NCBI GenBank assembly: GCA_016215325.1
Contig: JACRJV010000007.1
Coordinates: 3,728 to 67,727 of the forward strand
DNA: 64,000 bases
Direction of reading: 5' to 3'
Origin: Candidatus Uhrbacteria bacterium
Lineage (GTDB): Bacteria; Patescibacteriota; Patescibacteriia; JACRJV01
Positions 11,601 through 61,526 of the stretch are shown here, piece after piece (position 1 is the stretch's first letter; each line of letters opens with the position of its first letter). The notes under the pieces are model-generated. The model was not told where the DNA came from and made no database searches. It was given only the letters and a program-made list of their open reading frames with translations. Made by a program: the position numbers and the translations under genes.

Positions 11601-12377
11601 GCCATCGAGATTAATCGTGGTGCCCGCTCCTTGAATTGTTTTGTCCGCGCCCGTCACCGTCAATGTCCGCGATGTGGTGCCCCCGGCAACAGTGAACCCG
11701 TCCGCGGCCGAGGCAAGTGTCAATCCATTGACGGCGCCGCTGGTCACAGTGCCGGTGCCAGAACTTCCCACCGTGAGCGTGCCGGCCACGGTTGCATCAC
11801 CTTCGGCATCCACTTTGAATCGGCTCGTGCCATTCACCGCAATGCCAAAGAGCGTGTAGTTGGCGGTGACGCTCGCGGGGTTTATGTAGACAACACCTTG
11901 ACTCACGCCCGTTCCCGACGGGGTGCCAGTCAACGTAAAATTTCCGGAAGAGCTGGTCACGGGGACAAATGCAGAAAGGCCGCCAATGGCCGATGTTTCT
12001 AATCCATCGAGCCGATCGGTGTTGACGGCGTACCCCGATGCCCCAATCCGGCGTCGTGGCGAGAGCGTTTCGCCATTGACTTGGACCTCGAGATACAATG
12101 TGTCGTTATCGAACAACGTCACCGGGAATGCGTTTTGTGATCCGCCACCGGCAGATGTATCACCTAAGAGCACGCTAAACTCGCCACTGGCCACAGCCAC
12201 ACTCATGGTCGACGACGGACTCGTGCACCCATTCGCTCCCGTGCCTTTCGCAGACCATTGGCAGGTGCCGGACGTTGCGGCGTCGTAAATCACAAATGCC
12301 ATGTTGTAGTTGGCATCGCTTACCGCCGAACCGCTGGAAGTCTTGAGGACCCCCTGGTAACTCATGACATGGGGCAC
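2691..12377 (-). CDS. Giant repeat-rich, tail-fibre-like surface protein, 3228 aa as called from a GTG start. The C-terminus carries an intramolecular-chaperone (peptidase S74-like) domain plus a Pro/Glu/Thr/Ala-rich tail.
   Basis: This is a single uninterrupted 9.7-kb ORF. It is extremely rich in Gly, Thr, Ser, Ala and Asn. Modules of the form ...TDTLTNKTLTTPVIASISNSGTITIPTGTDTLVGRATTDTLTNKTLTSP... are reiterated. Some copies are identical at the DNA level, for example around 9.1-9.7 kb versus 10.4-10.8 kb. Two ~250-aa paralogous blocks begin ANNNFALASGTGTFVQTFTGDTTDAAQITA... and ANANFALASGTGTFVQTYTGNTTDAAQITA... Near the N-terminus there is a motif NGGTGATTAANARANLGAA like those seen in phage tail fibres. 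The C-terminal region reads ...DDDGNIGIGTTDPQYKLHVMGDVAATSFVNISTKEAKKDIEYLTEGDQKTILAKLANVNIARYHYKEE..., which matches the architecture of the 'chaperone of endosialidase' / peptidase S74 domain. A coiled coil and a PAPEPTPAPEP low-complexity tail follow. No signal peptide appears after the called start (see the mini-ORF at 12408..12488). Confidence 0.85.
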   Translation of the reverse strand: MPHVMSYQGVLKTSSGSAVSDANYNMAFVIYDAATSGTCQWSAKGTGANGCTSPSSTMSVAVASGEFSVLLGDTSAGGGSQNAFPVTLFDNDTLYLEVQVNGETLSPRRRIGASGYAVNTDRLDGLETSAIGGLSAFVPVTSSSGNFTLTGTPSGTGVSQGVVYINPASVTANYTLFGIAVNGTSRFKVDAEGDATVAGTLTVGSSGTGTVTSGAVNGLTLASAADGFTVAGGTTSRTLTVTGADKTIQGAGTTINLDGNLTLAGAFTTSGANALTLATTGATTLTLPTTGTIATLAGSETFTNKTIDNTNAATLKDTNFVIQDDSDTTKQLAFQISGVSAGATRTLSIPNVSGTIVTTGDTGSVTNGMLTGSIAASKLVGTDIATVGTITAGTWNGTTIAVANGGTGATTAANARANLGAAASGANSDITSISGLTTALAVAQGGTGAGTLSGILIGNGTSAVTATTASSGISGQLTDETGSGALVFATTPTLVTPVLGVASATSINKVAITAPATSATLTIADGKTLTASNSLTLAGTDATTITFQGTDTYVGRATTDTLTNKTLTTPVIASISNSGTITIPTGTDTLVGRATTDTLTNKTLTSPAINTATITNPAISGNETIASGASATWNGIDLSAATATITGSTNITTAAGFNLLNIAQPTLSAASALTVTNAATAYIANAPTGGGAGPATITNAYALWVDDGAVRFDGNVGIGVTTPTAVLHLKAGTTSASTAPLKFNSGSLMTTAEAGAVEFLTDAYYGTITTGAARKTFAFLESPTFTGTVTIPTPFTLGATSVTSTGTQLNYLSSAGGTTGTTSTNLVFSTSPTLVTPTLGVASATSINKVAITAPTTSATLTIADGKTLTASNSLTLAGTDATTITFQGTDTYVGRATTDTLTNKTLTTPVIASISNSGTITIPTGTDTLVGRATTDTLTNKTLTSPDINGGTADALTSLGIRSTGTGAFDLTLANTENLTAGRILTITTNDAARTINLAGNLTTAGALITSGANSLTLTTTGATNVTLPTTGTLATLAGAEALTNKTINGLTVTASTGTLTIADGKTLTASNSLTLAGTDSTTITFQGTDTYVGRATTDTLTNKTLTSPAINTATITNPAISGNETIASGASATWNGIDLSAATATITGSTNITTATGFNLLNIAQSTLSAASTLTVTNAASLYIANAPTGAGAGPATITNAYALWVDAGTTRLDGTLTLGNGETIVNSTDTELSFSDGTNTLTFDLDEDTNTAVEIVTSSGDDLVLSPGSGYVGIGTTTPTTNLVIKDSGGDRSSSYNMLILDKTDIGNPATIEFKTGYPSDWRAGSSITIANAFEIYDVNTSSSRFSIGGSSGTITLTGPVSLTGATTVAANNNFALASGTGTFVQTFTGDTTDAAQITASSVTTADALQITASGLTTGNALNIISTSTVGTGSDDTALVTLTRSGTNANSAHTAYGIYSSVTNVNATSGTNIAGYFAASTASGLIVNYALVANGTEGDLVGGTGSGDDLLLVSTSNATKGDIQFHSSSYIINSSGQATFATDETLNGIDVSSGAVSDVTTLGMSGALTIAPTTTGTFTDYQLETEWTQGTLINADFANVTTQSGGDITGLKFDFDTNLTGAADLDITGTDIVMNALTAADSAVTTTYTGYNISAAGALSVTDGANAAIINWRGANITMPNITQNTGDTVTANGIRLVNGTITTAGTQNIINLAAAGVGAGTLYGINIGNITAGNGTETALSIGSGWDTGIDLSANILVNIGNAGTDFTSTGGLTLAGALDANGQVDLGDSGDTVAIDSSDWDINTTGDMSGIGAITADGAISTTSTLNVDSTVTLGGTTIDANANFALASGTGTFVQTYTGNTTDAAQITADSVSTADALQISADGLTTGTGVFIESTSTVGGGSGSTALLKLTRSGTNSNATHTAYGVYSTVANTGTTSSNYGGYFSASGATTNYALFADGTQGDLVGGSGSGDDLLLISTSNSTKGDIQFHSSSYYINSSGQLTVATDESINGIDINAGAVSDVTTLGMSGALTISPTTTGTFLDFALETEWTTGSLINADFGSATTQSGAITGMAMDLSSNLTLDNTSAITGLSLTIPGTPASGSGTKTLTGIDVTNQMSADVAGVTVNSRGVNISVGGGNAAYTDGTINADGLRVASVSSDGSAGDTINLINLVPAGPQGGTYNALNIGDITANAATETAVKIGSGWDTAIRVTGSTTTGVTSHVVNLASDIGSGAALIYGAPDFSGSGVTGYGLNITATDSTANTNTDYGYYGSLALTGNAAKYGYGLYQTVTSNSTTADTIAALDIATSVTGAISTGTRTVYGLRSQPATSGASSGGTANVYGSYLAPSSTASSTGSTVNVYGEYIANTATLTTNGTINSYGLYIADGTSTTTGTSTKTGLYVASPTGADTNYTAIFAGGYVGIGDTTPTAALDVVGSGVFTTGSTTSVLTGSIDPTASTDVTGVGTAFLTELVVGDSITVSGETRMVTQIGNNTNLSVNVAFSDNANDTSVDRTPVQGITLQNTTASTATNDAQYSPALTFHGSSWVNPGPGLASYSQDWRVFSANQEGGGSQLRFDYNQFGNGYNTPMSLAANGNLNLALVTATFGNDTGESGNSWTGSVFTVNNNQTSTAVSGANSIVGNYFKFTNQPSVSNNVEYAMLIENQPTTNTTDNFVSALLVLNNADTAVTGPASTVVTDALLIANTGGAGITNDIKFQNSETIDNASDGTVNIKDSGGTAILTGSLTAFQINLDDTTTYTQRVCQSGADAATGLVNIGDCNAGGSDMAEYYGSDGTLEAGDIVAISGEAQEFVQERIGQSSKASVAKSQAVYAPITGVVSTNPFSEVLGEGVFTTEEHPVPIVLAGRIPVKVNLEGGDIAAGDRITTSSIAGVGMKAKTSGWTVGVALESYNAQSPDNKIVVWFNPQYRIESSQMAFDDDGNIGIGTTDPQYKLHVMGDVAATSFVNISTKEAKKDIEYLTEGDQKTILAKLANVNIARYHYKEESATAPLRMGLIAEEAPLEVLSIDGKGVDIYKLATFTLSAVKAQQTQIEKLFERMEQFEQRLDRLTGETTRSSQEELSFLRAEIQGIREQSQQQVRQQSASAPAPIITLKEIEEDPPTTPVEKKIEEPPSQASEVEPAPEPAVVTETPALPEPPITETPTASSEPTPTPAPEPTPAPEPVAEAAPAQSEPAAVEQAAATESAPAPAQPETVAQE

Positions 12378-14196: not shown

Positions 14197-14269
14197 AAGT
14201 ATTGAGCAAGATAAGCATTACGTCGTAGCTTAATTTACTTATTTTACTTATCTCGCTTATCTTGCTCGC
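14195..14269. repeat. Copy A of a ~40-bp palindromic element (AGCTTAATTTACTTATTTTACTTATCTCGCTTATCTTGCT) with a truncated inverted partner
   Basis: The full unit is at 14227..14269. The partial inverted arm ATAAGTATTGAGCAAGATAAGC is at 14195..14216. The element abuts the fdx start codon. Related copies are at 35871..35947 and 39981..40074. Confidence 0.7.
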
Positions 14270-14273
14270 TGCC

Positions 14274-16504: not shown

Positions 16505-17239
16505 ATTACGATCACAACAATCTTATGATTGTTGTGTCACTGATCACCACTGGGCAAACGGCTTTCCCGTACCCTAGCGGTTCCCAAATATCGTTATTGT
16601 TTTCTTCCCGTTCCTCCGCGCCATCTCGCGCAACGCCAGAATTTTTGAATATCCGGTGTCGCTCAGATGTTCTTTCTTCGCGATGATTTCCACCACGCGT
16701 CGAAAGATGTTGAAGGATTGCTGTTTTTTCGACTGAAGAGGGTGTTGTGCCTTCTCCGTCAACAAAACCCACAACATAGTGTGGCGGTAACGGTCGGAAA
16801 TGATAATTTGGTTTCACTCCTTCCCCAGAAAAACTTCTGAGTACTATGAGATCTGCTGACTTCTTGTACTTCATAAGAATGCTTGTTTCCAAACACTCCG
16901 CCATCACCTCGTGATTAATTCATCACGATGTAGTATACCACAATTTGATGATGGAAGGTACAAGATCTCCCTGGGTCACGAACAAGAATAATTGTCTCTA
17001 TCGGGATCCTAATCACATACAGCATTTTGTGTTCGAATAATTTCCCCCTGTACGCGCGGGGTCATCCAAACTGTATGCCACCATTGATTCACGCTAAAGA
17101 CTGCGTCCGAACTCTCGTCAGAGCCCTCGCGGGCACTGGCGTGTTCTTTGCTTCAAGTCTTTCGAACGAGACTTGGTCGGATTTCCTGCCTGCCGACAGG
17201 CAGGTCACCAACATTCGTTGTCCGCTACCAGGCGGTCCG
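16505..17239 (-). mobile_element. Intron/IVS inside the 16S rRNA gene, inserted between the GUACAC and ACCGCCCGUC segments near E. coli position ~1397
   Basis: The boundaries are unambiguous by alignment to the universal 16S sequence. The intron begins GGACCGCCUGG and ends ...CGUAAU, so it shows neither the group I terminal G nor the group II GUGYG. Its class cannot be determined by eye. Confidence 0.8.
16512..16907 (-). pseudogene. Degenerate LAGLIDADG homing-endonuclease ORF inside the 16S intron, probably frameshifted
   Basis: The 131-aa ORF contains ...HYVVGFVDGEG, a LAGLIDADG motif, but then turns low-complexity. An overlapping ORF in a second frame (16574..16777) carries the endonuclease-like continuation ...SFNIFRRVVEIIAKKEHLSDTGYSKILALRE... 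Confidence 0.5.
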
Positions 17240-17550
17240 TGTACAAAACCCGAGAACGTATTCACCGCGGCGAGGCTGATCCGCGATTACTAGCGATTCC
17301 TGCTTCATGAGGGCGAGTTGCAGCCCTCAATCTGAACTGGGGGGTGATTTGATGGGATTAGCTCCAGCTTGCGCTTTGGCGGCCCATTGTAGCACCCCAT
17401 TGTAGCACGTGTGTCGCCCAGGACGTAAGAGCCATGCTGATTTGACGTCATCCCCACCTTCCTCCCCCTTGAGGGGGGCAGTCTCGCCAGACACTTGTAA
17501 CTGGCAATAGGGGTTGCGCTCGTTTCCAGACTTAACTGTACACCTTACGG

Positions 17551-17583
<33 letters not shown>

Positions 17584-17695
17584 TGCACCCTCGAAGGTCA
17601 CACGTTTCCGTGCGCTTGCAGCATCATGTCAAGCCCTGGTAAGGTTCCTCGCTTATTGTCGAATTGAACCACATGCTCCACCGCTTGTGCGGGTT

Positions 17696-17744
<49 letters not shown>

Positions 17745-19037
17745 GATACTTAAGGGGTTACCTTTGATAAACGACACTGGGAGGGTCGATACTCCCAATG
17801 TCTAGTATCCATCGTTTACGGCGTGGATTACGCGGGTATCTAATCCGCTTCACTCCCCACGCTTTCGTCTCTCAGCGTCAGATCCGTCCTAGTATGCTGC
17901 TTTCGCCTTTGGTGTTCCTGCCGATATTAACGCATTTTACTACTACACCGACAGTTCCGCATACCTCTTCCGGCCTCAATCCTGACCATCTCTCCCGCAG
18001 CGCCGAAGTTAAGCTTCAGCATTTAACAGAAGATGCATCAGGACGCCTACAGACGCTTTACGCCCAATAAATCCGGATAACGCTTGAACCACTCGTATTA
18101 CCGCGGCTGCTGGCACGAGTTTAGCAGGTCCTTATTCCCACCATACCGTCAGAAATCGGGGATCGGATATCGGAAATCGAAACGGAGGAATCCGACTTCT
18201 GATCTCTGAACCCCGACCTCTTCTTCTGGTGGAAAAGCAGTTTACACTCCGAAGAGCTTCATCCTGCACGCGGCGTCGCTCCCTCAGACTTTCGTCCATT
18301 GGGGAAGATTCTTGACTGCAGCCTCCCGTAGGAGTCGGGCCAGTATTTCAGTGCCCGTGAGGCGGGTCGTGCTCTCACACCCGCTACCCGTCGTCGCCTT
18401 GGTGGGCTTTTACCCCGCCAACTAGCTGATAGGCCATAGGCCCCTCTCCGAGCGGATTGCTCCGTTACTCCAAAACTCTTGCGAGAATGGAGACCATTGG
18501 GAATTAGCGTCTCTTTCGAAACGTTATGCCCATCTCGAAGGTAGGTTACCAATGTGTTACTCACCCGTTTGCCACTCTGCGCGCTCCGCGCTGAAATATC
18601 GATATATCGAAATATCGAAATGTCAGTGCGAAGCACGCAGCGTTCGACTTGCATGCCTTAGACACGCCGCCAGCGTTCATCCTGAACCAGGATCAAATTC
18701 TCAAGAAGATTGAATGTTGATTGCTCAACGGTTCAATATACTGTTCCTAAGAACAGATTTGGTTGCTTAGTTATTTTGTTGAATTGACGTATTGCTATCA
18801 CGTTTCTTGTTTCAACCTTACATTGTTGTCTACCCAATTTTCAATGTACGATCCCTTGAGAGAGAAAAAAATACACCCGCCCATGTGCTTCCAGCGCATC
18901 CGTAAATCCACACATAGACTGGCTGTAGAATGTTTCCGTATTGTTGGCCGTTTGGGCCATCCCCAAGGGGCAACGGGTAGTATGACGGAAACAAAAGCCG
19001 GTGTCAAGAGCAAGTCTGAGATGCAAATACATCTCCG

Positions 19038-19316: not shown

Positions 19317-19594
19317 TTCTGTTTCAGGTACTCGATCATTTTGTTGACATCCGTAAACCCTTTGGACATATTGCGTCCTTTCTTGATGTCACGATCGATA
19401 GGACCGAGCGCCCGCTCCAGCTCCTCGGACATCGTGAACGGCTCGCCCAGCGTCAACCGCTTCTCTCGCACGAATTGTTTGAGTTGAGCGTTCACGATGA
19501 TACTGAGCGGGACACCAACATCATGCGCCAATCGTTGGGCCTTGGTCTTGAGGACTTTATCAATTTTTACATTAAGGACGGTTTTAGTCTCCAT
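19313..19594 (-). CDS. relB: RelB/DinJ-family antitoxin
   Basis: This 93-aa gene sits upstream of the toxin and is translationally coupled to it. The sequence ...LNVKIDKVLKTKAQRLAHDVGVPLSIIVNAQLKQFV... is a ribbon-helix-helix-like N-terminus. Confidence 0.65.
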   Translation of the reverse strand: METKTVLNVKIDKVLKTKAQRLAHDVGVPLSIIVNAQLKQFVREKRLTLGEPFTMSEELERALGPIDRDIKKGRNMSKGFTDVNKMIEYLKQK

Positions 19595-22185: not shown

Positions 22186-22218
22186 AGAAATAACCCCGCA
22201 TTGCGGGGTTATTTTTTA
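22186..22218. terminator. Bidirectional intrinsic terminator between the convergent FN3-protein gene and trmD
   Basis: The hairpin reads AAATAACCCCGCA-TTG-CGGGGTTATTTTTT and is flanked on both sides by A/T runs. Confidence 0.75.
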
Positions 22219-22962
22219 CTTATGGCGCGCATACTTCTTGCGCCACTGCTCTATTTTTTTGTGATCGCCGCTTAACAAAACGTTGGGAACGGTCAACGTC
22301 CGAGGGTTGAGTTTCTTCTTGCCCCTATACCCCATACCCTGAACCCTGATCGCTTCCGGCCGTGTATACTGTGGGTACTCCACATACCCTTCCGTGGAAT
22401 GCGTTTCATTCACAATCGATTCTGGGTCCCCTACCACCCCGGGGATCATGCGGCTCACGGCATCGATCACAACAAGTGCGGGCAGCTCCCCACCCAGTAA
22501 CACATAGGGGCCGATGGAAATCTTCTCATCCGCAAATTTATACACGCGCTCATCAAAGCCCTCATAGCGACCACAGAGCAGAACGAGCTGGTCGTATGTT
22601 GTCAACCGTTTGGCCATTGCCTGAGTGAGTTGCTTGCCGGCGGGGTCGAGAGCGATGACACGAGTACGAGTTCGAGAGTTACGAGTGACGAGTGACGAGT
22701 GTGGCGACGTTTTTTTCGTAACCCGTAACCCGTAACCCGTAACCGTCTCCAAACACCGTATCATAATATCCGCCCGGAGGATCATTCCCGGCCCCCCGCC
22801 ATAGGGCCGATCATCCACCACATGGTGTTTGCCCGGCGCATAATCGCGCAAGTTATGGACCCGGAAATCCAAAAGTCCCTTCTTTTGAGCATGCTTCAAC
22901 AAGCTCTCATTCAGATACGGCGGGAACAATTCCGGGAAGATGGTGATGATGTCGAATACCAT
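22216..22962 (-). CDS. trmD: tRNA (guanine37-N1)-methyltransferase TrmD, carrying two in-frame repeat-derived insertions
   Basis: The sequence ...VDDRPYGGGPGMIL...LLCGRYEGFDERV...GGELPALVVIDAVSRMIPGVVG... identifies TrmD. The ORF is open from 22983, but the likely start is MVFDIITIFPE. Confidence 0.9.
   Translation of the reverse strand: MVFDIITIFPELFPPYLNESLLKHAQKKGLLDFRVHNLRDYAPGKHHVVDDRPYGGGPGMILRADIMIRCLETVTGYGLRVTKKTSPHSSLVTRNSRTRTRVIALDPAGKQLTQAMAKRLTTYDQLVLLCGRYEGFDERVYKFADEKISIGPYVLLGGELPALVVIDAVSRMIPGVVGDPESIVNETHSTEGYVEYPQYTRPEAIRVQGMGYRGKKKLNPRTLTVPNVLLSGDHKKIEQWRKKYARHK
22659..22745. repeat. Heptamer repeat block ((ACGAGTG)n ... TTTTTTT ... (CGTAACC)n) inserted in-frame inside trmD
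   Basis: The nucleotide sequence ACGAGTACGAGTTCGAGAGTTACGAGTGACGAGTGACGAGTG-TGGCGACGTTTTTTT-CGTAACCCGTAACCCGTAACCCGTAACC is translated as GLRVTKKTSPHSSLVTRNSRTRTRV, which is absent from E. coli TrmD. A second in-frame motif CCCCTATACCCCATACCCTGAACCCTG lies at 22323..22348. Confidence 0.7.
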
Positions 22963-22985
22963 AGCATGGGAACCATAATGCAAAT

Positions 22986-23053
22986 ATACAAATCAATTCG
23001 AATGCTACAAATATTCGTTGTATTTGCATCCATTCGCATATTCGCATTATGTT
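22986..23053 (-). promoter_or_regulatory. Conserved ~70-bp leader/promoter element. A second copy is at 45830..45897 upstream of yraN.
   Basis: On the minus strand it reads CATAATGCGAATATGCGAATGGATGCAAATACAACGAATATTTGTAGCATTCGAATTGATTTGTATATTTGCATTATGG. The two copies are about 80% identical and each ends 14-20 nt before the likely start codon. They contain a GCGAAT direct repeat and a possible TTGTAG-16-TATATT promoter. Confidence 0.5.
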
Positions 23054-23070
23054 TTTCATTATGTTCCTCA

Positions 23071-25611: not shown

Positions 25612-26016
25612 TTAGTTTTTGAGTGACGAGTTGCGAGTGACGAGTTTTTGTCGCTTTTGCTCTTCAAGATATGAAATGAGTGCGCCCACTCTCTTGGCTA
25701 AGAGTTCCAACGTATTATTGGTGCCATCAAACTCGGATTGAGAAATATGCCCCACTGAAAGGGCAATGTGCAGTTGATTGCGGACCTCACCAATTGAACC
25801 TCTGGCACTCCTTAAGAAACGGCAAAACTCATTATTATTTCTTTTCTCAAACCCTTCAACAATGTTAGAACTGATGGAAATTACCGCTCGCCGTATTTGG
25901 TCTCGCAATCCGAAATCTTTAGAAAATTTTTCTTTTGCTGATAAATCATAGATAACTTTGGTGTTTTCTAAGCTCATTTGCCATATCTCTAAATCTTCGA
26001 ATCGCGTAATATTCAT
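25612..26016 (-). CDS. Four-helix-bundle protein (TIGR02436 / '23S rRNA intervening-sequence protein' family)
   Basis: The sequence ...KFSKDFGLRDQIRRAVISISSNIVEGFEKR...FLRSARGSIGEVRNQL... is characteristic of this family. Confidence 0.75.
   Translation of the reverse strand: MNITRFEDLEIWQMSLENTKVIYDLSAKEKFSKDFGLRDQIRRAVISISSNIVEGFEKRNNNEFCRFLRSARGSIGEVRNQLHIALSVGHISQSEFDGTNNTLELLAKRVGALISYLEEQKRQKLVTRNSSLKN
25613..25650. repeat. Left inverted-repeat arm flanking the four-helix-bundle gene (GAGTGACGAGTTGCGAGTGACGAGTTTTTGTCGC)
   Basis: It is about 80% complementary to the arm at 26020..26062. It belongs to the same family as the trmD insert. Confidence 0.65.
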
Positions 26017-26019
26017 AAC

Positions 26020-26062
26020 TCATCACCCGTAACTCGTAACCCGTAACTCGTAACCCCTATAC
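26020..26062. repeat. Right inverted-repeat arm (CACCCGTAACTCGTAACCCGTAACTCGTAACCCCTATACCCTAAACCCTATTT)
   Basis: GTAAC(C/T)C heptamers are followed by a CCCTATACCCTAAACCC block, which resembles the in-frame inserts in nfo and at the trmD C-terminus. Confidence 0.65.
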
Positions 26063-26114
26063 CCTAAACCCTATTTATCAACATGCCCGACGCCTGCGCT
26101 TATTATACACCAAA

Positions 26115-35870: not shown

Positions 35871-35947
35871 AAGTGAATTAAGCAAGATAAGCCCGGCCGT
35901 CGCCACAGCTTAATTTACTTATTTTACTTATCTCGCTTATCTTGCTT
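35871..35947. repeat. Copy B of the 40-bp palindromic element
   Basis: AAGTGAATTAAGCAAGATAAGC, a 14-nt spacer, then AGCTTAATTTACTTATTTTACTTATCTCGCTTATCTTGCTT. It lies 12 nt upstream of the rpiB ATG. Confidence 0.7.
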
Positions 35948-36563
35948 AACCAGATCCATTTTTCCGTCTATACTTCTGCGCGTCCTTTATTTCCACCTTT
36001 TCTTTTTTGATCATCTCAATCACTTTGGCCACCAACCGTTTCGGGTTACTATCATAAACAACCTTCCCGTTGCCCTTGTGAGCACGCTCAACAATATCCT
36101 TGATCATGTCTGCCATGCCACCAGTCCCCGTAAGGATCCCTTGCGGCTTGTTGTCTTCAAACGCAATCGTAAATTCGTTGAGCGTTCCGATCCGACCGCA
36201 CACAGTGATCACCGCATCCGATGCTCTGGTTAAAATGAGGTTACGGCCCGAGTAATCAAAACCAGTGTAAATGATCATGTCAAAGTAATCCGTCGGGAGC
36301 CGGTAGCTTTTGACATGCGCTAATTCTGTTGCCGCTGGCGAGATGCCAATAGAAATTCCACCTTCCTGCTTGGCTCCTATTGCTGCCCAATACGGCGCGC
36401 CGGTCGTGGCCCCGCTCACGAGGATCCCGCCTTGGCGCACAATTTCCCGTCCCACCTCGACGGTTTTTTCATAGGCACCGGGGGCCGCTGAAGTAGTGTC
36501 CGCAGAACCGGAAACGCAAATTTTGTATTTGAGATAGGATTGAGGGATCGAATCTTGACTCAT
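35946..36563 (-). CDS. TIGR00725/LOG-like Rossmann-fold nucleotide-binding protein
   Basis: The sequence ...ICVSGSADTT...GGILVSGATTGAPYWAAIGAKQEGGISIGISP... matches the family. Confidence 0.5.
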   Translation of the reverse strand: MSQDSIPQSYLKYKICVSGSADTTSAAPGAYEKTVEVGREIVRQGGILVSGATTGAPYWAAIGAKQEGGISIGISPAATELAHVKSYRLPTDYFDMIIYTGFDYSGRNLILTRASDAVITVCGRIGTLNEFTIAFEDNKPQGILTGTGGMADMIKDIVERAHKGNGKVVYDSNPKRLVAKVIEMIKKEKVEIKDAQKYRRKNGSG

Positions 36564-36677
36564 AATCGAATTTTCAATTTACAATTTCCAATGAATTTTC
36601 ATTGATTCAATTATCGAAACTGAACCGACATTGAAAATTGGATCATTGATAATTGAATGAAAATTTAAAATTGAAAA

Positions 36678-38024
36678 TTATAATTCAACAACCTCTCCAA
36701 TCTTCGGCACACTGGCATTAATGCCGAATTCGTCTTGAATGTTTGTTGCTAAGACATGCGCCGCCTCGTCATCTCCTTGCACTGTAAAAATGTGTTGGAT
36801 CGGCCGCTGGATATCCTGCACAAAGGCCATGAGCTGATCATGATCCGCATGTCCCGAATACGCAAGTGCTTGTAATATTGTTGCTCGTACCGGAACATCT
36901 TTCTCTCCAATGCGAATATGTGTTGCCCCCTCCTGGAGTTGGCGTCCATTCGTACCATTAACTTGATAGGAGACGAGCAAGAGAATATTTTGTGAGTCTG
37001 GCAAATACAATTGCTCGTGATAAATAATGCGGCCGCCCGTGCTCATCCCGTTGCCCGCAATAATGACCTTTGGTGCGGGCGCAGAATTAATCGCTTTCGA
37101 TTCCTCGCGTGTTCGCGTGATCTTGAGCCCGGGGAATTCAAAAATATTGTCGCCCAAACGGATCTGATTTTGTCCTTCCGCGCTCAAATAGGAGTGGTGC
37201 CGTTGGTAGATTTCGGTTGCCGCTGCGGCCATGGGGCTATCGATATAGACGGCGATGCGCGGCACACGAGCATCTTCGACGAGGGTGTCTAAATCGTAGA
37301 GAATCTCTTGGGTTCGTTCAACCGCCAGCGACGGAATAATCAATGCACCGCGATGCTTCACGACATGCTCAATCGCGCGCTCAAGTTGTTCTTTTCGGTC
37401 CTTGACCGGCTCATGCACGCGATCACCATATGCCGACTCGATGATCACATAGTCAGCGCGATCGATGACATCGGCCGGAGGCAGCAACGGGGATAATTCA
37501 TTGCCCAAATCACCCGTAAACAAGAGCTTCTTGCCCTCTGCCCACACTTCAACCATGGACGACCCCAGAATGTGTCCGGCATTGCGCAATTGGAACTGGA
37601 CATCGCCCACACTCTGGCGCTGCTTGTATTCAATCAGCCTCCATAAGCGCCCAACACCGGCTACGTCCGCATGGCTATAGAGCGCCGCTGATCCTCCTTC
37701 CTGCGCTCGCGTGGTCATGATCTCTTCGCTATCCTCCACGACCAGTTGGGCGAGCTCTGCCGTGGGCGGCGTGGCATAGATCGGCCCACGGTACCCTTGT
37801 TTGTATAACAGCGGCAATCGCCCACCATGGTCCAAATGCGCGTGCGTCAAGATGACCGCGTCGATCGTCTTGGGGTCATACAGGAATGGTTTTTGATTCC
37901 AACCCTTGTTTTCTGCCCCACCTTGAAACATCCCGCAGTCCACGAGAATCTTCGTCGTGCCAGTTTCCAAAAGATAATTAGCGCCGGTCACAATCCCGGC
38001 CCCGCCGCAAAAGGTGAGTTTCAT
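36678..38024 (-). CDS. MBL-fold beta-CASP ribonuclease (RNase J / CPSF-like)
   Basis: The sequence ...VDCGMFQG...ILTHAHLDHGGRLP... carries the HxHxDH metallo-beta-lactamase motif and beta-CASP segments. Confidence 0.75.
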   Translation of the reverse strand: MKLTFCGGAGIVTGANYLLETGTTKILVDCGMFQGGAENKGWNQKPFLYDPKTIDAVILTHAHLDHGGRLPLLYKQGYRGPIYATPPTAELAQLVVEDSEEIMTTRAQEGGSAALYSHADVAGVGRLWRLIEYKQRQSVGDVQFQLRNAGHILGSSMVEVWAEGKKLLFTGDLGNELSPLLPPADVIDRADYVIIESAYGDRVHEPVKDRKEQLERAIEHVVKHRGALIIPSLAVERTQEILYDLDTLVEDARVPRIAVYIDSPMAAAATEIYQRHHSYLSAEGQNQIRLGDNIFEFPGLKITRTREESKAINSAPAPKVIIAGNGMSTGGRIIYHEQLYLPDSQNILLLVSYQVNGTNGRQLQEGATHIRIGEKDVPVRATILQALAYSGHADHDQLMAFVQDIQRPIQHIFTVQGDDEAAHVLATNIQDEFGINASVPKIGEVVEL

Positions 38025-38107: not shown

Positions 38108-39067
38108 TTATCCGCGGACAATCAACACAGTGATGTAGAGGACATACGCCGTCAAAAACCCCGTTCCCTGCCATCGTTCAATGATATGACGCTTCCCCAC
38201 AAACAGAAAAATAAATAGCAGAAGGGTAGCGAGCACGGCAACGCCGATGTCCATATTACTGCGCGATTGGAATGGCAATGGCCGTATGATGCTGCTCATT
38301 CCTAAAATCCAAAAGATGTTAAAAATGTTGGAACCAACGACGTTGCCGACCGCAATATCGACGTTCCTCTTATACGCCGCCACAGCCGAAGTAGCGAGCT
38401 CCGGTAACGAAGTACCGACCGCAACTACCGTCAGCCCAATCAACGACTCGCTGACCCCAAGATTCGAGGCAATCTCTACCGCAGAATCCACCACCCATTT
38501 CCCGCCGACCACAAGGACCATCAATCCCCCTGCCACCATTGAAACGGATCGGAGCAATCCGAAGCGGCGCACTGGAAGCCCTTGCTCTGATGGTGGCCCG
38601 CCAAACGCCAACTCGTACGTGTAGAACAAAAAGATCGCGAAAAATCCGATTAGAGCGATACCATCCGTGCGCGTAAGCGCAGAAAATTCTAGGCCGTCAA
38701 TCCACTGATCATTGGCCATCACCGCAATCATCAACACCGCCAAAAGACTAAAGGGGATTTCCTTCCAGACCGTCCCTTTCGTAACCCGCAGTGGATAGAT
38801 CACCGCGGCAATGCCCAAAATGAGGAGGATGTTGGCAATGTTCGAACCTAGAATATTGCCAATGGCGATTTCGGTGTTCCCGGAAATGCTCGCGACGGTG
38901 TTAACAATGAGCTCCGGTGCTGATGTGCCAAACGCAACAATCGTGAGACCAACAGCTAAGTCGGAAATGCCAAACCGTTTGGCAATGGAAGATGCTCCAT
39001 CAACGAGCCAACCCGCTCCTTTGATAAGCAATGCAAACCCTACGACGAGAAAAAAGAGAGTTGTCAT
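38108..39067 (-). CDS. CaCA-family cation/Ca2+ antiporter (YrbG-like)
   Basis: Two alpha-repeats are present: ...GTSAPELIVNTVA...GNILGSNIANILLILG... and ...GTSLPELATSAVA...GNVVGSNIFNIFWILG... Confidence 0.8.
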   Translation of the reverse strand: MTTLFFLVVGFALLIKGAGWLVDGASSIAKRFGISDLAVGLTIVAFGTSAPELIVNTVASISGNTEIAIGNILGSNIANILLILGIAAVIYPLRVTKGTVWKEIPFSLLAVLMIAVMANDQWIDGLEFSALTRTDGIALIGFFAIFLFYTYELAFGGPPSEQGLPVRRFGLLRSVSMVAGGLMVLVVGGKWVVDSAVEIASNLGVSESLIGLTVVAVGTSLPELATSAVAAYKRNVDIAVGNVVGSNIFNIFWILGMSSIIRPLPFQSRSNMDIGVAVLATLLLFIFLFVGKRHIIERWQGTGFLTAYVLYITVLIVRG

Positions 39068-39972
39068 ATTGATGGCTTACGAAATTTTTTGAGGACCACA
39101 ATATCCCGAGGTCGCTTCTCTTCTGTCGGTGTTTCTAAAATTAAATCGCAATGCTGGAGTTTTTTGTTTTTGACGATCGCTTCAAAAGCCGGTAGACCGA
39201 TATAACCATCACCTAAGTCCGCGTGGCGGTCCACGTGGGAGCCGAATTCCACCTTGGAGTCGTTGCAATGGAAGACGACCAGGCGATCAAGGCCGATGTT
39301 CTTCTCAAACTCATCAAACACTTTTTTCTGGGTTTCTTTTGTGCGCATATCGTAGCCCGACGCAAAGGCGTGTTGGATGTCGAAGCACACGCCCAGACGA
39401 GGGTTTAGGGTAGAGGGTTTAGGGTTCAGTTTCTTTGATGTCCCCGCCTCCACGCCGGTGATGATTGCGGCAATTTCGTCGAAGGTGTCGCCCATTATCA
39501 ATCCTGCTCCGGCGGAGATTTCTAACAACAGTTGGCAGGACCCCGTATAGCCGTCCAAAATGTTCTTCACCCCTTCGATCACCATTTGCATTCCTCGCTG
39601 TTGCGCCGCTTCGGCAGAAAGCCCACTTTTGAGGAGATCGTTGGCGCTGCCAAGATGCGTCATGAGTGCTTTAACGCCGAGTACACTCCCGCGTTCTAGT
39701 TCTTCACGGACCACGGCGATGGTTCCGTACCGCGTCCGATTATTGCTCGAAGCAAAATTTACATAGTAGGGCGCATGGATGTACGCCGCCTTCTGGCGGT
39801 GTTGTTCCATCGCTTCGCGAAACAGCCGAATCGCCTCGTCGTCGAGTGTGCGAGCCGGCCCGCCTTGCGGAGGCCGCGAGAAAAACTGAAACGCTTCTCC
39901 GCCAATCTTGGCGGAATTTTCTGGAGCATTGTGCAAGCCCCCGGCAGCGGAGATGTGAGCGCCGAAGAACAT
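39064..39972 (-). CDS. nfo: Endonuclease IV (Nfo) with an in-frame repeat insertion
   Basis: The sequences FGAHISAAGGL, LLEISAGAG, GVCFDIQHAFASGYD, FHCNDSKVEFGSHVDRHADLGDGYIG and LILETP match E. coli Nfo. Confidence 0.85.
   Translation of the reverse strand: MFFGAHISAAGGLHNAPENSAKIGGEAFQFFSRPPQGGPARTLDDEAIRLFREAMEQHRQKAAYIHAPYYVNFASSNNRTRYGTIAVVREELERGSVLGVKALMTHLGSANDLLKSGLSAEAAQQRGMQMVIEGVKNILDGYTGSCQLLLEISAGAGLIMGDTFDEIAAIITGVEAGTSKKLNPKPSTLNPRLGVCFDIQHAFASGYDMRTKETQKKVFDEFEKNIGLDRLVVFHCNDSKVEFGSHVDRHADLGDGYIGLPAFEAIVKNKKLQHCDLILETPTEEKRPRDIVVLKKFRKPSI
39401..39429. repeat. GGGTTTAGGGTAGAGGGTTTAGGGTTCAG heptamer repeat inserted in-frame in nfo
   Basis: The repeat is translated as ...SKKLNPKPSTLNPRL... 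and replaces the short DKSRV loop of E. coli Nfo. It shares KKLNP...NPR with the trmD C-terminal insert. Confidence 0.65.
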
Positions 39973-39980
39973 ATTTGCGG

Positions 39981-40074
39981 AGCAAGATAAGCGAGAAAAG
40001 TAAGATAAGTAAATTAAGCTTGCTGGCGATCGGGCTTATCTTGCTTATGTTACTTATCTTGCTTATCTCGCTCG
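39981..40074. repeat. Copy C of the 40-bp element, present as a complete inverted pair
   Basis: AGCAAGATAAGCGAGAAAAGTAAGATAAGTAAATTAAGCT, a 13-nt spacer, then GCTTATCTTGCTTATGTTACTTATCTTGCTTATCTCGCTCG. It lies 8 nt upstream of the nfo ATG. Confidence 0.75.
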
Positions 40075-45453: not shown

Positions 45454-45810
45454 TTATACAGCGTTCGGGATGTGTTCTATGTGGGACTCTCCGCTGGGCT
45501 CCACCAATATGGCGATCACGTCTATGCGGACCGTGCGATATTGCGGATGGACATTCCAGTACCATTGCGCGAGCTGACGGAGTTTGTGTTGCTTATGGGC
45601 GGTCACGGCTTCTTCGGGGTACCCATAGTGAGTGGAATTGCGAGTCTTCACTTCAACGATGACTAACTCTGATTCAAGCGCACAAACAACATCGATCTCC
45701 CCGAAGGGAGATCGAATATTGCTGCCCAAAATGGTGTACCCCTTTGTTTCTAAATATCCGCGTGCAACGCCTTCGCCCCAATCGCCGCGCTTCTGACGCG
45801 CATTACGCAT
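45454..45810 (-). CDS. yraN: YraN/UPF0102-family putative endonuclease. The ORF is open to 45825.
   Basis: The sequence ...GEGVARGYLETKGYTILGSNIRSPFGEIDVVCALESELVIVEVKTR... matches the family. Confidence 0.7.
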   Translation of the reverse strand: MRNARQKRGDWGEGVARGYLETKGYTILGSNIRSPFGEIDVVCALESELVIVEVKTRNSTHYGYPEEAVTAHKQHKLRQLAQWYWNVHPQYRTVRIDVIAILVEPSGESHIEHIPNAV

Positions 45811-45829
45811 AAAACATAATGCCAATTTA

Positions 45830-45897
45830 CAAATTCATTCGAATACTACGAATACCAAATTTGCTGTATTGGCATTCATTCGCATATTCGCATTATG
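45830..45897 (-). promoter_or_regulatory. Second copy of the trmD-type leader/promoter element
   Basis: On the minus strand it reads CATAATGCGAATATGCGAATGAATGCCAATACAGCAAATTTGGTATTCGTAGTATTCGAATGAATTTGTAAATTGGCATTATG... It directly abuts the yraN start. Confidence 0.5.
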
Positions 45898-46284
45898 CTA
45901 TCTGCCGGGTATGTACTTCAGCTGCTGGAGCCGGCGGTACTCATCCTTCTCTTTTGCACCCCAATGTTTATACCGTCCCCAAAGGGTGTATGCGCGCCAT
46001 ACCACAAGAAGTGCCAACAACACGTACCATGCGCGTGCGCCAAGGACGACAACGCGCTGCCCCGAAAGCCACGTGAGCAACAGTCCGGCAACACCGACAG
46101 AAAATGCATTCATGCGCACTTCGCTTGCCCATTCCATCATCCACCGGCTGCTGCGGCGTTTGACGATCGGGGGGAGGAACAAGCCGATCGCAACCAACAG
46201 GACAGCGACCGCCATGGCGGTACGGATGACCGGGGACTCCGTCGCGGGTTGAATAAAGTTAAGCCACTGGAGGAGTGTAGACAT
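45898..46284 (-). CDS. Small membrane protein, hypothetical
   Basis: There are three hydrophobic helices. Confidence 0.4.
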   Translation of the reverse strand: MSTLLQWLNFIQPATESPVIRTAMAVAVLLVAIGLFLPPIVKRRSSRWMMEWASEVRMNAFSVGVAGLLLTWLSGQRVVVLGARAWYVLLALLVVWRAYTLWGRYKHWGAKEKDEYRRLQQLKYIPGR

Positions 46285-51968: not shown

Positions 51969-52763
51969 TTATCGTTGACTCAACTCCTGTGCCCTCTTAT
52001 ACGCCGCCTGTGTTGCTGCCTTCCACAATTCTACAAATTTTTCGACTCCTAACGATTCCATAGCGGCGTTGGTGGTCCCTCCTGGTGATGTAACGCGACG
52101 ACGAAGTTCTTGGGGTGCCACTTGACGCTGATCGTAATAGAGAGCGCTGCTGCCCCGTAACGTTTCCGTGACGAGCAACCGTGCGGTCTCGCGATCAAAC
52201 CCAAGAGCGATCGCCGACTCCTCCAGCGCTTGCGCGAGCAAAAACACATACGCCGGGCCGCTGCCGCTAATTGCAGTCGCGGCATTGACCATATCTTCAT
52301 TCTTAAGCTCAAGGTGTTTCCCAAATGCCGAAAGGATTTGCTCGGTCTCAAGTTTATCCTGCGGCGTGACACCACCCGATGCGATCCACACCGTAAGCCC
52401 CTGACCAATCTGCGCTGGGGTATTCGGCATTGTTCGTACAACGCGAGAAGTATCGAGCTGTTCTTCGAGTTGATCAAGGCTGATGCCAGCCATGATCGAT
52501 ATAACGAGATGGTGGCCGATATGACCGTTCATCTCTGAAGCGAGGACATGATATTGTTGCGGTTTGACCGCAAGGACCAAAATTTCCACCTTTGGCAACA
52601 TTGCGGCAATACTGCCAATGACCGTTACAGAGCTCTCCTGTGCACACGCGCATCGGGTTGGATCCACGTCAAACACAACCACTACTTCGCACCCATGCTG
52701 TCGCACTAATGCTGATGCAATTGCTTCGCCCATCACGCCGTAACCGATGATGCCGATGTTCAT
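51969..52763 (-). CDS. proC: Pyrroline-5-carboxylate reductase. The ORF is open to 52817.
   Basis: The sequence begins MNIGIIGYGVMGEAIASAL and carries a C-terminal ...TSPGGTTNAAMESL... segment. Confidence 0.85.
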   Translation of the reverse strand: MNIGIIGYGVMGEAIASALVRQHGCEVVVVFDVDPTRCACAQESSVTVIGSIAAMLPKVEILVLAVKPQQYHVLASEMNGHIGHHLVISIMAGISLDQLEEQLDTSRVVRTMPNTPAQIGQGLTVWIASGGVTPQDKLETEQILSAFGKHLELKNEDMVNAATAISGSGPAYVFLLAQALEESAIALGFDRETARLLVTETLRGSSALYYDQRQVAPQELRRRVTSPGGTTNAAMESLGVEKFVELWKAATQAAYKRAQELSQR

Positions 52764-52877
52764 ACATCCGAAATTCGAATATCGAAATCCGAAACAATAT
52801 CGAATACCAAAGCTCAAAACGCTCTAAAATTTTGTAGATTTGAATTTGTTTCGGATTTCGTGCTTCGGATTTTGTAT

Positions 52878-53939
52878 TTAATACGTAATAAGGTGGTCCC
52901 GATGGATCACGTCCACGTCATTGGTCGACCCCTGGTCGAGCTTAAGCTCCAGGTCCCGAGAATCCATAGTGACAATACCGCAGCCAATGCCATGCCTATC
53001 GCTATCGACAATCTCCACGATTTCTCCGTGTTCAAATTCGCCCAGCACCTTGCGCACACCAACCGCCAACAGCGTATTGCCTTTTTTGATCGCTTCAATC
53101 GCGCCGTCATCTACCACGATCACACCGCTCTTTTCTTTGCACGATAGCATCCATCGTTCATGCGTAGTAATTTTATCCGCCTCGCGCTTTGCATAAAACC
53201 GAGTGGCCGGCACACGGCAACTCAAGAGATCATCGATCTCCACGCACATCTTCCCATTGGCAATGAACGTTTCCACGCCTCCGGCGATGGCGAGCTGCGC
53301 TCCCTTCAATTTTGTCAGCATGCCTCCCATGCTATTTGCCGACACGGTGTGCGAGCAATATTCAAAAAACTCTTTTGCCACGTCGGTCGTGTCGCACACT
53401 AAATGCCGGCGGCCGTTTTTCTCGCGTGGGTCTTGGGTGTACAGCCCAAATTGATCGGTAAGGTAAATAAGATATTGGGCCCTGACAACAATCGAGACAA
53501 CTGCGGCCAACATGTCATTCTCACCAAACGCTTCCGGCTCCCCATTCGTAAGAGCGTCGTTCTCATTAATAATCGGGATAATTCCCGCCTCTGTGAGTTC
53601 AGTAAGCGATCGTTGGAAGGCATCAAAGAGTCCTCGTCGATGGAGGTCGGGCCGTGAAACAATTAACTGCGCCACGTCCAGCCCCTCATCGACGAAGGCC
53701 TTCCGATACGCCTCCATCAGTCGGACCTGCCCAACGGCAGCGAACGTTTTTTTATCGGTGAGTTTGAGCCCCGCCGTCCGCCCAATCGTGACCGCGCCAG
53801 AGCTTACAAAAAGCGGAGCATACCCTGCTCCGAGCAATTGTTTGGATTGACGCGCGTAACAATTAATCACGTCTTGACTTAATTGATCCTTTGAATCCAT
53901 CAACACGTTCGTCCCTACCTTAATGACGATAATCGACAT
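52878..53939 (-). CDS. proB: Glutamate 5-kinase with a PUA domain
   Basis: The sequence begins MSIIVIKVGTNVL and has an amino-acid-kinase fold plus a C-terminal PUA domain. Confidence 0.85.
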   Translation of the reverse strand: MSIIVIKVGTNVLMDSKDQLSQDVINCYARQSKQLLGAGYAPLFVSSGAVTIGRTAGLKLTDKKTFAAVGQVRLMEAYRKAFVDEGLDVAQLIVSRPDLHRRGLFDAFQRSLTELTEAGIIPIINENDALTNGEPEAFGENDMLAAVVSIVVRAQYLIYLTDQFGLYTQDPREKNGRRHLVCDTTDVAKEFFEYCSHTVSANSMGGMLTKLKGAQLAIAGGVETFIANGKMCVEIDDLLSCRVPATRFYAKREADKITTHERWMLSCKEKSGVIVVDDGAIEAIKKGNTLLAVGVRKVLGEFEHGEIVEIVDSDRHGIGCGIVTMDSRDLELKLDQGSTNDVDVIHRDHLITY

Positions 53940-60825: not shown

Positions 60826-60895
60826 AAAATAAGGTAAGTAGGGATTAGCTTGTGGCTTGTAGGCATCCTACCAGCTACAAGCTAATGCCTATTTC

Positions 60896-61399: not shown

Positions 61400-61526
61400 C
61401 ATACGGTATGAGTACGAATCGATCCGAATCACGCCCAAATAAATCCTAATGACATTCACGCGAGATTTGGTTCTATTCGATGTTCAGATTCGGATCAGTT
61501 TGTACTACTCTCACTTATGCACACTA

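Follow-up and report, generated by a model that had tools for sequence, protein, structure and literature searches.

A translated tandem-heptamer insert in the nfo gene of a Candidatus Uhrbacteria bacterium as a probable relic of a palindromic DNA element related to IVP gene cassettes

The nfo gene and its in-frame insert

A stretch of 64,000 nucleotides from a metagenome-assembled contig of Candidatus Uhrbacteria bacterium (JACRJV010000007.1, positions 3,728 to 67,727; hereafter the window) was analysed with respect to an insert in nfo, the gene encoding endonuclease IV (deoxyribonuclease IV). The product of the nfo open reading frame (ORF) is 100% identical to MBI5134847.1 from Candidatus Uhrbacteria bacterium, and its best match in the PDB is E. 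coli endonuclease IV (1qtw, E = 2e-35). A first-pass annotation of this DNA had drawn attention to a 29-nt tract within the gene, and GGGTTTAGGGTAGAGGGTTTAGGGTTCAG was indeed located at 39401-39429 (+ strand), as its single occurrence in the window; allowing up to 3 mismatches, no match was obtained in any shuffled sequence. Tandem Repeats Finder described the tract either with a period of 7 (3.9 copies, 80% match) or with a period of 14 (1.9 copies, 100% match). The template strand of nfo carries at 39401-39424 (+) a canonical G-quadruplex motif of four G3 tracts separated by 4-nt loops.

The complete insert comprises 39 nt (13 amino acids, codons 180-192; Table 1) and contains no ORF of its own. 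The protein around it reads ...GVEAGTSKKLNPKPSTLNPRLGVCFDIQHAF..., and alignment to E. coli Nfo (GVEDK-------------SRVGVCIDTCHAF) leaves a 13-residue gap exactly at the insert, between GVE(D/A) and R(V/L)GVC, in agreement with the earlier statement that the E. coli enzyme lacks it. Three codons upstream of the insert, GGG ACA TCA (GTS, 39436-39444), are also missing in the other orthologues.

The AlphaFold2 model of Nfo is of high confidence (predicted local distance difference test score, pLDDT, 91.2; predicted template modelling score 0.90), and its sole weak internal segment consists of residues 183-188 (NPKPST), a coil between helix 164-177 and strand 193-198. In TIM barrels, catalysis takes place at the C-terminal strand ends, and the alpha-to-beta loops are found on the other face. 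The insert is thereby modelled as a disordered alpha-to-beta loop on the face opposite the active site, as the first-pass annotation had proposed in placing it in a surface loop, and a peptide in such a position would most likely be neutral for the enzyme.

Membership of a palindromic family and reading frame

The nfo insert was compared with arrays from related loci, and ungapped matches were obtained to the 3' arm of an inverted-repeat cassette in L013 (IVP1, see below; 29/32), to the 3' arm of the C-terminal trmD insert of L011 (34/40) and to that of the L011 mid-protein trmD insert (26/30). These matches cover the aperiodic leader AAACT and the irregular unit CT(C/G)TACC, and the terminal CCTCG of the insert is also common to arms in other genes and genomes. 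The earlier proposal that the insert is dispersed DNA shared by unrelated genes is borne out by such matches. Judged by sequence, the insert is the solo C-rich 3' arm, with its loop-proximal leader AAGAAACT, of a GGGTTTA/TAAACCC palindromic family, and what had been described as a free-standing G-rich array is to be reread as a single arm of such a palindrome. A complementary partner arm is missing from the nfo tract, which forms no hairpin on either strand (fold z +0.5 and +1.8).

With at most 1 mismatch, GGGTTTAGGG was found 8 times in the window against 2.83 expected, a count reached by 0 of 100 shuffles, and period-7 arrays numbered 12 against 1.3 in shuffled sequences (about 9-fold enriched). 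Two of the single-mismatch matches, at 19351 and 59386, are isolated without any array and look like chance. The GGGTTTA/TAAACCC family is multi-copy, being present at three loci of the window, at two sites of L011 and in L013; the in-frame inserts in the window are those in nfo and, at two sites, in trmD, of which the C-terminal one belongs to the nfo family. The motif is thus not restricted to nfo and trmD, since a third copy lies at 26055-26073 in the window and further ones in L011 and L013. Features that the first-pass annotation did not mention are the larger second trmD insert (22660-22746), the palindromic family itself, about ten further hairpins with tandem-unit arms and the chance nature of the two matches just mentioned.

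DNA of this family leaves one of the three frames open in each orientation. A perfect (AACCCTA)n array would contain a stop codon in every frame, and the irregular unit CTCTACC removes it. It is this unit that makes the nfo insert translatable, which speaks strongly, if indirectly, for its translation. Each of the orthologous alleles retrieved, 8 of nfo and 4 of trmD, is in frame and open. Because a single frame is open, the same KKLNP..NPR peptide signature is expected wherever the C-rich arm survives; the signature noted earlier is therefore truly shared by nfo and trmD, but it is not independent evidence of their kinship. The same peptides also occur across genes: the TrmD protein P0122 contains LNPKPSTLN, as does the Nfo insert of the window, and the mid-protein trmD insert of L011 encodes RRLNPKPSTLNA, again a peptide of that insert.

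Inserts in trmD

The trmD gene (tRNA m1G37 methyltransferase) contains two inserts, both extra relative to all solved TrmD structures. Near its C-terminus it contains ...GYRGKKKLNPRTLTVP..., encoded by AAGAAGAAACTCAACCCTCGG, and the peptide KKKLNPRTL is present there as previously described. This insert is composed of a G-rich 5' arm, a leader as in nfo and a single remaining C-rich 3' unit, that is, a decayed hairpin. The mid-protein insert belongs to a second family and is an in-frame inverted pair of heptamer arrays around a 17-nt loop, with the same arms as the IVP cassette of the window (see below). The TrmD model is moderate (pLDDT 68.7), and both inserts fall in coil with pLDDT <50, which is consistent with surface loops here as well.

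At the DNA level, the trmD inserts of the window fold weakly, and the C-terminal insert of L011 is an intact hairpin (z -4.96); both L011 inserts are hairpins of the GTTTAGS/SCTAAAC family. The in-gene copies look like decaying hairpins, of which nfo keeps a solo 3' arm. Both trmD sites are occupied in all relatives at 64-70% identity, with differing arrays.

More distant Patescibacteria TrmD proteins (P0138, P0140 and P0148; 50-54% identity) carry array-like peptides at the same C-terminal site, e.g. IPNPKSQIPNKFKIQNSKFK, and array inserts in TrmD may extend well beyond this Uhrbacteria clade.

Cassettes carrying an IVP gene

The window encodes one four-helix-bundle protein of the 23S rRNA intervening-sequence protein type (IVP; PF05635 / TIGR02436), whose gene occupies the loop of a hairpin cassette; the two arrays enclosing it are those of the mid-protein trmD insert. 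Its start codon is inside the last unit of the 5' arm (GTTATGA, in a GTTACGR array) and its last ten codons (..LVTRNSSLKN) are encoded by the CTCGTCA array of the 3' arm. The third related tract that had been reported beside this PF05635 gene was recovered as CCCTATACCCTAAACCC at 26055-26071; it belongs to the remnant of an outer 5' arm, whose orthologue in L013 is the beginning of the IVP1 cassette's 5' arm. In L013, IVP1 occupies the orthologous place upstream of PfkB and has GGGTTTA.../...TAAACCC arms on its two sides, and the second IVP gene (IVP2) is flanked by inverted 9-mer arrays, so that all three IVP genes of the window and L013 sit between inverted arrays. IVP2 gave a weak match to NF033474 (Avd; 47.5 against a cut-off of 80). 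No diversity-generating retroelement context was detected, the ORFs neighbouring IVP containing no reverse transcriptase and the Avd score being below the cut-off.

Mobility and exchange of related elements

Two situations document that related elements are demonstrably mobile or exchangeable. The junction between the H+-PPase and trigger-factor genes (PPase/tig) measures 0-4 nt in five genomes and holds a 105-nt insert in L004; this insert contains a palindromic element AGTAC...GTACT, which recurs twice more in L004 and once in the window. The window and L013 have orthologous flanks around the IVP site (PfkB, 82% protein identity; upstream DNA about 90% identical up to ...GATAAATAGGGTTTAGGG), and the IVP genes that they carry between these flanks are only 45% identical and have different arms, the window keeping a stub of the outer GGGTTTA arm. 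The IVP cassette was thus swapped between orthologous flanks. L006 and L012 have no IVP gene beside PfkB; in these loci the aldolase gene overlaps PfkB and gene order differs, and they are not a clean empty site. The proposal of a mobile element landing in frame is supported by these polymorphic or swapped relatives, but not by the nfo site itself, which was occupied anciently and where only the unit family changes.

Orthologous nfo sites: persistence and array turnover

Orthologous nfo loci were found via contigs encoding orthologous proteins; a direct Nfo scan of genome contigs gave only a distant Yanofskybacteria locus. An insert is present here in every Nfo protein of 69-84% identity and in none of the Uhrbacteria proteins at 56% identity or less. 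At the eight syntenic loci, the DNA contains a period-7 array in 8/8 cases, with five unit types: AACCCTA (window), AACCTAx (L006), RGCCTAx (L008), AAGCTAx (L002, L007, L010) and GAAATCC (L004, L009).

A neighbour-joining Nfo tree was built without the insert region, the insert bearers being the window, the seven other syntenic loci, and P0003 and P0008 (protein only). The ten insert-bearing proteins were monophyletic (100%). Within them, L004 (GAAATCC) is sister to L007 (AAGCTAx) with 92% support, and L009, which also carries GAAATCC, is placed far from them. Unit types and gene tree are thus in conflict, so that the units were not simply inherited; arrays were replaced. The GAAATCC and AGCTACA units of orthologous nfo sites are those of intergenic hairpins of the window (52763-52880 and 60836-60894), and the trmD site of L012 holds the same GAAATCC array with the same leader. 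These comparisons show that occupied sites persist while their arrays get replaced by other unit families from the genomic pool, and the nfo copy is an old site occupancy, not a recent landing.

Several of the orthologues present further insertions. Second in-frame inserts after GYDMRE were observed in nfo of L010 (3285-4256, Nfo P0010) and L009 (5654-6604, P0009); that of L010 is a C-rich/G-rich palindrome (DNA fold z -2.6) of polarity opposite to IVP-type arms, and no repeat or hairpin structure was detected in that of L009. In the nfo insert of L009 (coding strand GAAATCC GCCACCGCCCGCTGCGG GAAAATCC...), the heptamer array is interrupted by a 17-nt GC-rich piece (GCCACCGCCCGCTGCGG), which recalls the small dispersed repeats reported nested in cyanobacterial heptamer arrays. 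A third insertion site, after GSAADV, is visible in the protein sequences of P0012 and P0068 (...GSTLTAKKSNLDRDGR...), where the insert has the look of an array product. Downstream of nfo the gene content varies: AbiEii-family toxin-antitoxin-like pairs lie directly downstream in L002 (5759-9660), L007 (2138-3500) and L009 (6664-8099), and are not found in the window, L004 or L006.

IVP genes and inverted tandem arrays in other bacteria

An IVP alignment was scanned against metagenomes, which yielded 80 loci, 70 of them with both flanks scored. The best inverted-repeat score across the IVP ORF had a median of 16.75 (n = 70) against 8.0 in 265 shifted-window controls, and 54 of the 70 genes exceeded the control 95th percentile (p = 2e-25). 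When other ORFs of the same loci served as control, 6.8% of them attained a score of at least 14, as compared with 70% of the IVP genes (odds ratio 32, p = 4e-16). Among arms qualifying as tandem arrays, 25 had a period of 7, 12 a period of 8 and one a period of 10. G predominates over C in the 5' arm (35% G, 10% C), and the 3' arm is C-rich, a polarity that is strand-symmetric in a palindrome and hence uninformative on gene orientation, and the arms often touch the start and stop codons.

Arrays flanking IVP genes were identified in Nostoc punctiforme (AGGAGTC/GACTCCT), Calothrix (GGGTGTA/TACACCC) and Geminocystis (AAGGGAA/TTCCCTT). In Azospirillum lipoferum the IVP ORF is inside a complete 23S rRNA gene, flanked by AGAGGAC/GTCCTCT arrays, and corresponds to a classical intervening sequence (IVS). 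In the Coxiella IVS, tandem GACAGAT heptamers of variable number lie directly upstream of the S23p gene, and the first of these repeats is where RNase III cleaves (PMC4990558). The start codon of the Xanthomonas campestris gene XCC0516 is overlapped by a GGGAATC array (PMC4692102 supplement), and XCC0516 is the structural representative of PF05635 (PMC10053308); IVP is an Avd homologue, a four-helix bundle forming a pentamer (PMC10053308). In the literature library that was searched, no earlier account turned up of IVP genes flanked by inverted heptamer arrays in places other than rRNA, of arms built as arrays in general, or of in-frame derivatives.

Plasmids gamma and alpha of Nostoc sp. PCC 7120 (L094 and L095, respectively) encode identical IVP proteins (WP_010994075.1), for which only the downstream (CTTCTGC)n array is intact. 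On plasmid gamma an ISL3 transposase gene adjoins the upstream side of the IVP gene, which suggests that the 5' arm was lost there through insertion of an insertion sequence (IS).

Identity of the nfo tract with a telomeric repeat, (TTTAGGG)n, was considered and rejected: the tract is internal, inside a coding gene, translated and made of four interrupted units, and other family members use unrelated units. The telomere-like character of the array, noted in the first-pass annotation, looks coincidental because the IVP-associated arms of the metagenomic loci use dozens of different 7/8-mers.

Interpretation and alternative explanations

We consider it likely that a selfish palindromic DNA element, whose full-size members carry an IVP gene, has left the nfo tract as its translated relic. 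The earlier idea of a mobile element tolerated in surface loops is then largely right, and the insert is better described as an old and decayed arm of an IVS-like hairpin element with tandem-unit arms. The family would consist of hairpins whose arms are short tandem 7-nt units (8- or 9-nt in sister families), with a G/T-rich 5' arm (GGGTTTA...) and a C/A-rich complement as 3' arm (...TAAACCC). Full-size members would hold the PF05635 (IVP/S23p, Avd-like) gene in the loop, the same architecture as that of ORF-bearing 23S rRNA IVSs, and gene-less members would be short hairpins. In this Uhrbacteria lineage, copies would reside in intergenic spacers, 16S rRNA variable loops and in-frame loop-coding parts of housekeeping genes. 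In essential genes only frame-keeping, stop-free copies would survive, giving KKLNPKPSTLNPR from a C-rich arm and RGFRVxG-like peptides from a G-rich arm. Elements may enter loops or pre-existing arrays by re-insertion, or by gene conversion or template switching between dispersed copies; selection would filter for frame and absence of stops and disfavour long stems inside mRNAs, and slippage would adjust the number of units. The IVP might conceivably serve the element's own mobility or maintenance. The nfo copy would have lost its 5' arm and with it the capacity to fold. Transposition is so far a putative mechanism.

Several points weigh against this interpretation. A shared heptad periodicity inflates the similarity of any two arrays with like units, and the family argument therefore depends on the leader and the irregular unit; the proposed palindromic origin of the nfo tract is drawn from its homology to arms elsewhere, and the presumed neutrality of its peptide from a structural model. 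No target-site duplication was found at the four AGTAC...GTACT copies or at the IVP cassette boundaries, and no transposase or reverse transcriptase in the ORFs scanned (64 kb searched). At the nfo site there is no empty-versus-filled pair at recent divergence, the unoccupied relatives being at most 56% identical, so that the first nfo array may have arisen de novo. Arm mismatches showed no G-U excess on the sense strand (69 G-U against 90 A-C, p = 0.11); an RNase III or RNA-level role is thus unsupported by covariation, and arm complementarity seems kept or generated at the DNA level. In other taxa, among the 80 metagenomic loci, gene-less arrays of the IVP-arm unit showed no clear enrichment near IVP genes (5/30 against 3/30 with shuffled units). 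The DNA covered is moreover a limited sample, with 64 kb from the present genome and between 4 and 21 kb for each related locus.

The closest competitor is a local microsatellite, in which the heptamer would have arisen in place by slippage in nfo, and independently in trmD, would have changed by unit gain or loss and concerted point mutations, and would resemble other loci by convergence. The strict period of 7 at all eight orthologous nfo sites agrees with this, as do the differences of only 1-2 positions between the units of the window, L006, L008 and L010 and of whole or partial units in length; heptameric simple sequence repeats (SSRs) are moreover over-represented in bacteria, with slippage proposed as the cause (PMC4692102). 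We nevertheless regard it as unlikely, given that the leader AAGAAACT, the irregular CTCTACC unit and the terminal CCTCG are common to arms in other genes and genomes, that GAAATCC occurs in non-sister lineages and unrelated units in sisters, with the same GAAATCC array and leader at trmD of L012, and that the inverted array pairs of L011, L013 and the IVP cassettes are not produced by slippage alone. A module selected for its function, in which the peptide KKLNP..NPR or a nucleic-acid structure would benefit the expression or activity of nfo and trmD, appears less probable still. In its favour, occupancy of the site has lasted across a clade of 69-84% identity, the G-rich sequence GGGTTTAGGGTAGAGGGTTTAGGG of the template strand has the four G3 tracts and 4-nt loops of a canonical G-quadruplex motif, and GGGAATC heptamer arrays form G-quadruplexes in vitro (PMC4692102). 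The peptide, however, is not conserved: five unit families give unrelated sequences, most of which do not form G-tracts, the insert is the least confident part of a confident Nfo model and on the non-catalytic face, and Nfo of E. coli and of more distant Uhrbacteria does without it.

Since 7 is not a multiple of 3, a one-unit change could also switch nfo or trmD off and on as a contingency (phase-variation) locus. The period of 7 was confirmed, and heptanucleotide repeats drive phase variation in some pathogens; but with only about 4 units and interruptions (80% match) the arrays are of a kind in which slippage is suppressed, and none of the retrieved alleles, eight of nfo and four of trmD, is out of frame. 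Bacteria generally cannot do without trmD, and switching it off would be lethal. We judge such a locus very improbable. An assembly or annotation artefact, in which repeats caused a chimeric metagenomic join and the insert would not be real, deserves hardly any credence: the contig is metagenome-assembled and repeats can mislead assemblers, but independent assemblies of different projects (ENA, JGI, NCBI, Logan) all show an in-frame array at the same codon position with flanking synteny intact, and the arrays, of 30-90 nt, are shorter than sequencing reads.

Beyond the proposed relic of a selfish palindromic element in nfo, a wider unification is possible but doubtful: 23S IVSs, free-standing four-helix-bundle genes, the heptameric SSR/STRR (short tandemly repeated repetitive sequence) arrays of Nostoc, Calothrix and Xanthomonas and the in-frame array inserts in housekeeping genes of the Candidate Phyla Radiation (CPR) might form one widespread selfish-element class. 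Each would be a hairpin with tandem 7/8-nt arms, the pentameric, Avd-like IVP would bind the arrays and promote their copying, their insertion into loops or arrays already present, or their maintenance, and gene-less hairpins and solo arms, the nfo insert among them, would be non-autonomous decay products.

Other array elements and features of the window

The features are collected in Table 1. About ten further intergenic hairpins with tandem 7-, 8- or 9-mer arms are present in the window, several of them multi-copy and some one-armed. The 16S rRNA gene (17225-18708, -) contains two expanded loops, of which the V1 expansion is a very stable hairpin (z -6.5), and array elements seem to have colonised 16S rRNA loops as well. 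No large-subunit rRNA was found in the 64-kb window. Just downstream of the 16S gene, 16817-16900 (-) matches the Rfam group II intron D1-D4 model (57.5 bits) and may be a group II intron fragment; the 131-aa ORF overlapping it is without a Pfam match, and its neighbourhood contains no reverse transcriptase ORF. One ORF of exceptional size (3228 aa) occupies 2691-12377 (-); next comes an ORF of 815 aa, and a TCCAATA heptamer array (2594-2628) overlaps the 5' end of the latter.

Table 1. Positions of the nfo and trmD inserts, the IVP cassette and other tandem-array features in the window
Feature	Position	Strand	Description
nfo (endonuclease IV / deoxyribonuclease IV)	39064..39972	-	302 aa, PF01261, GenBank MBI5134847.1
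nfo in-frame insert	39397..39435	-	coding strand AAGAAACTG AACCCTA AACCCTC TACCCTA AACCCT CGT = K180-R192 (KKLNPKPSTLNPR)
trmD (tRNA m1G37 methyltransferase)	22216..22983	-	host gene
trmD C-terminal insert	22300..22350	-	coding [ATCAGGG TTCAGGG TATGGGG TATAGGG]GC-AAGAAGAAACT-CAACCCTCGG; peptide IRVQGMGYRGKKKLNPR
trmD mid-protein insert, second family	22660..22746	-	coding [GGTTACG]x4 - AAAAAAACGTCGCCACA - [CTCGTCA-type]x5; peptide GYGLRVTKKTSPHSSLVTRNSRTRT
IVP gene, PF05635 / TIGR02436 four-helix-bundle protein (23S rRNA intervening-sequence protein)	25612..26016	-	134 aa, MBI5134829.1
IVP cassette 3' arm	25619..25646	-	coding CTCGTCA CTCGCAA CTCGTCA CTC
IVP cassette 5' arm	26014..26054	-	coding GTTACGA GTTACGG GTTACGA GTTACGG GTGATGA GTTATG
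Outer 5' arm remnant, GGGTTTA family	26055..26073	-	coding TAGGGTTTAGGGTATAGGG; beyond cassette 5' arm, GGGTTTAGGGTATAGGG
Hairpin just upstream of nfo, 9-mer array arms (AAGATAAGC type)	39980..40073	.	position kept in L002, L009, L010, L007
9-mer family, second copy	14200..14270	.	truncated 5' arm, full 3' arm
9-mer family, third copy	35905..35950	.	solo 3' arm, nearly identical to 14230-14268
Intergenic hairpin, ATTCGCAT-type units	22966..23059	.	same family as 45807-45905
ATTCGCAT-type hairpin, second copy	45807..45905	.	
Intergenic hairpin, heptamer arms AATTTxC / GAAAATT	36569..36679	.	
Hairpin, GAAATCS-type units	52763..52880	.	unit family found at nfo site in L004, L009 and at trmD mid site in L012
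Hairpin, AGCTACA/AGCTAAT units	60836..60894	.	unit family found at nfo site in L002, L007, L010
Palindromic element AGTACGAATCGATCCGAAT...GTACT	61411..61506	.	three copies in L004, one an insertion polymorphism
Tandem 8-mer array, expanded V1 hairpin of 16S rRNA gene	18593..18624	-	46 nt where Rfam model has 6
Tandem heptamer array (GAAATCG type), expanded V3 of 16S rRNA gene	18152..18183	-	62 nt where model has 13

Significance and comparison with known systems

To our knowledge, S23p/IVP is a large family with solved structures and no known function, and we know of no origin story for 23S intervening sequences and bacterial heptamer arrays in more than 30 years. The association of IVP with inverted 7/8-mers in CPR bacteria, cyanobacteria, proteobacteria and genuine rRNA IVSs provides a testable hypothesis that links IVP with these sequences and arrays. 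The CPR case indicates that such elements can colonise essential protein genes in frame and then undergo exchange at fixed permissive sites, so that enzymes of minimal genomes, highly conserved in other respects, acquire disordered loops particular to a lineage. Such inserts can confuse orthology, alignment-based phylogenies of CPR marker genes and 16S variable-region analyses, and may serve as fine-scale strain markers. If the unified reading were true, such an element would continually supply reduced genomes with new disordered loops in their proteins and rRNAs.

The ORF-bearing 23S IVSs of Coxiella and Leptospira (PMC4990558) likewise have inverted arms around a PF05635 gene and tandem heptamers abutting the start codon, vary in heptad number between strains, are regarded as selfish and horizontally spread, and insert into a loop of a host macromolecule. 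In contrast to these, the nfo host is a protein gene, and its copy is gene-less, one-armed and probably translated instead of excised by RNase III. The nfo insert shares tandem heptamers with IVSs, but is not in a 23S helix (9, 25 or 45), has no stem-forming arms and holds no PF05635 ORF; stems are formed by the C-terminal trmD insert of L011 and by the IVP cassettes of L013 (IVP1) and of the window, and the ORF is present in the window cassette and in two L013 cassettes.

Rickettsia palindromic elements (RPEs; PMC10969869), compared by their published description, also are a dispersed palindromic family found in frame in unrelated housekeeping genes, with a family-specific peptide compatible with the protein fold. 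They differ in their size (about 100-150 bp, the inserts here measuring 39-90 nt), in being without tandem short units or a known gene-carrying member, and in belonging to a different phylum, and here several unit families replace one another at fixed sites. The heptameric SSRs of Xanthomonas (GGGAATC) and of Nostoc and Calothrix (STRR, GGGGAYT; PMC4692102) have G-tract units of period 7, often as convergent inverted pairs, and are conserved in position while length and sequence vary between relatives. Unlike the inserts described here, 89-93% of them are intergenic, they are treated as G-quadruplex-forming SSRs and not as element arms, and no in-frame occupation of essential genes or link to IVP is reported for them (PMC4692102). 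The nfo tract has head-to-tail 7-nt units as they do, but its variation is not accounted for by local slippage alone.

[quoted passage not shown] Avd of diversity-generating retroelements is an IVP homologue and a pentameric four-helix bundle (PMC10053308), but the score of 47.5 lies below the cut-off of 80, and neither a reverse transcriptase nor a template/variable repeat pair was found near IVP. Palindromic elements in frame (RPEs), SSRs of heptamers and IVSs with an ORF have each been described before; what appears to be new is their apparent unity, together with the finding that this class has colonised essential protein genes in CPR bacteria.

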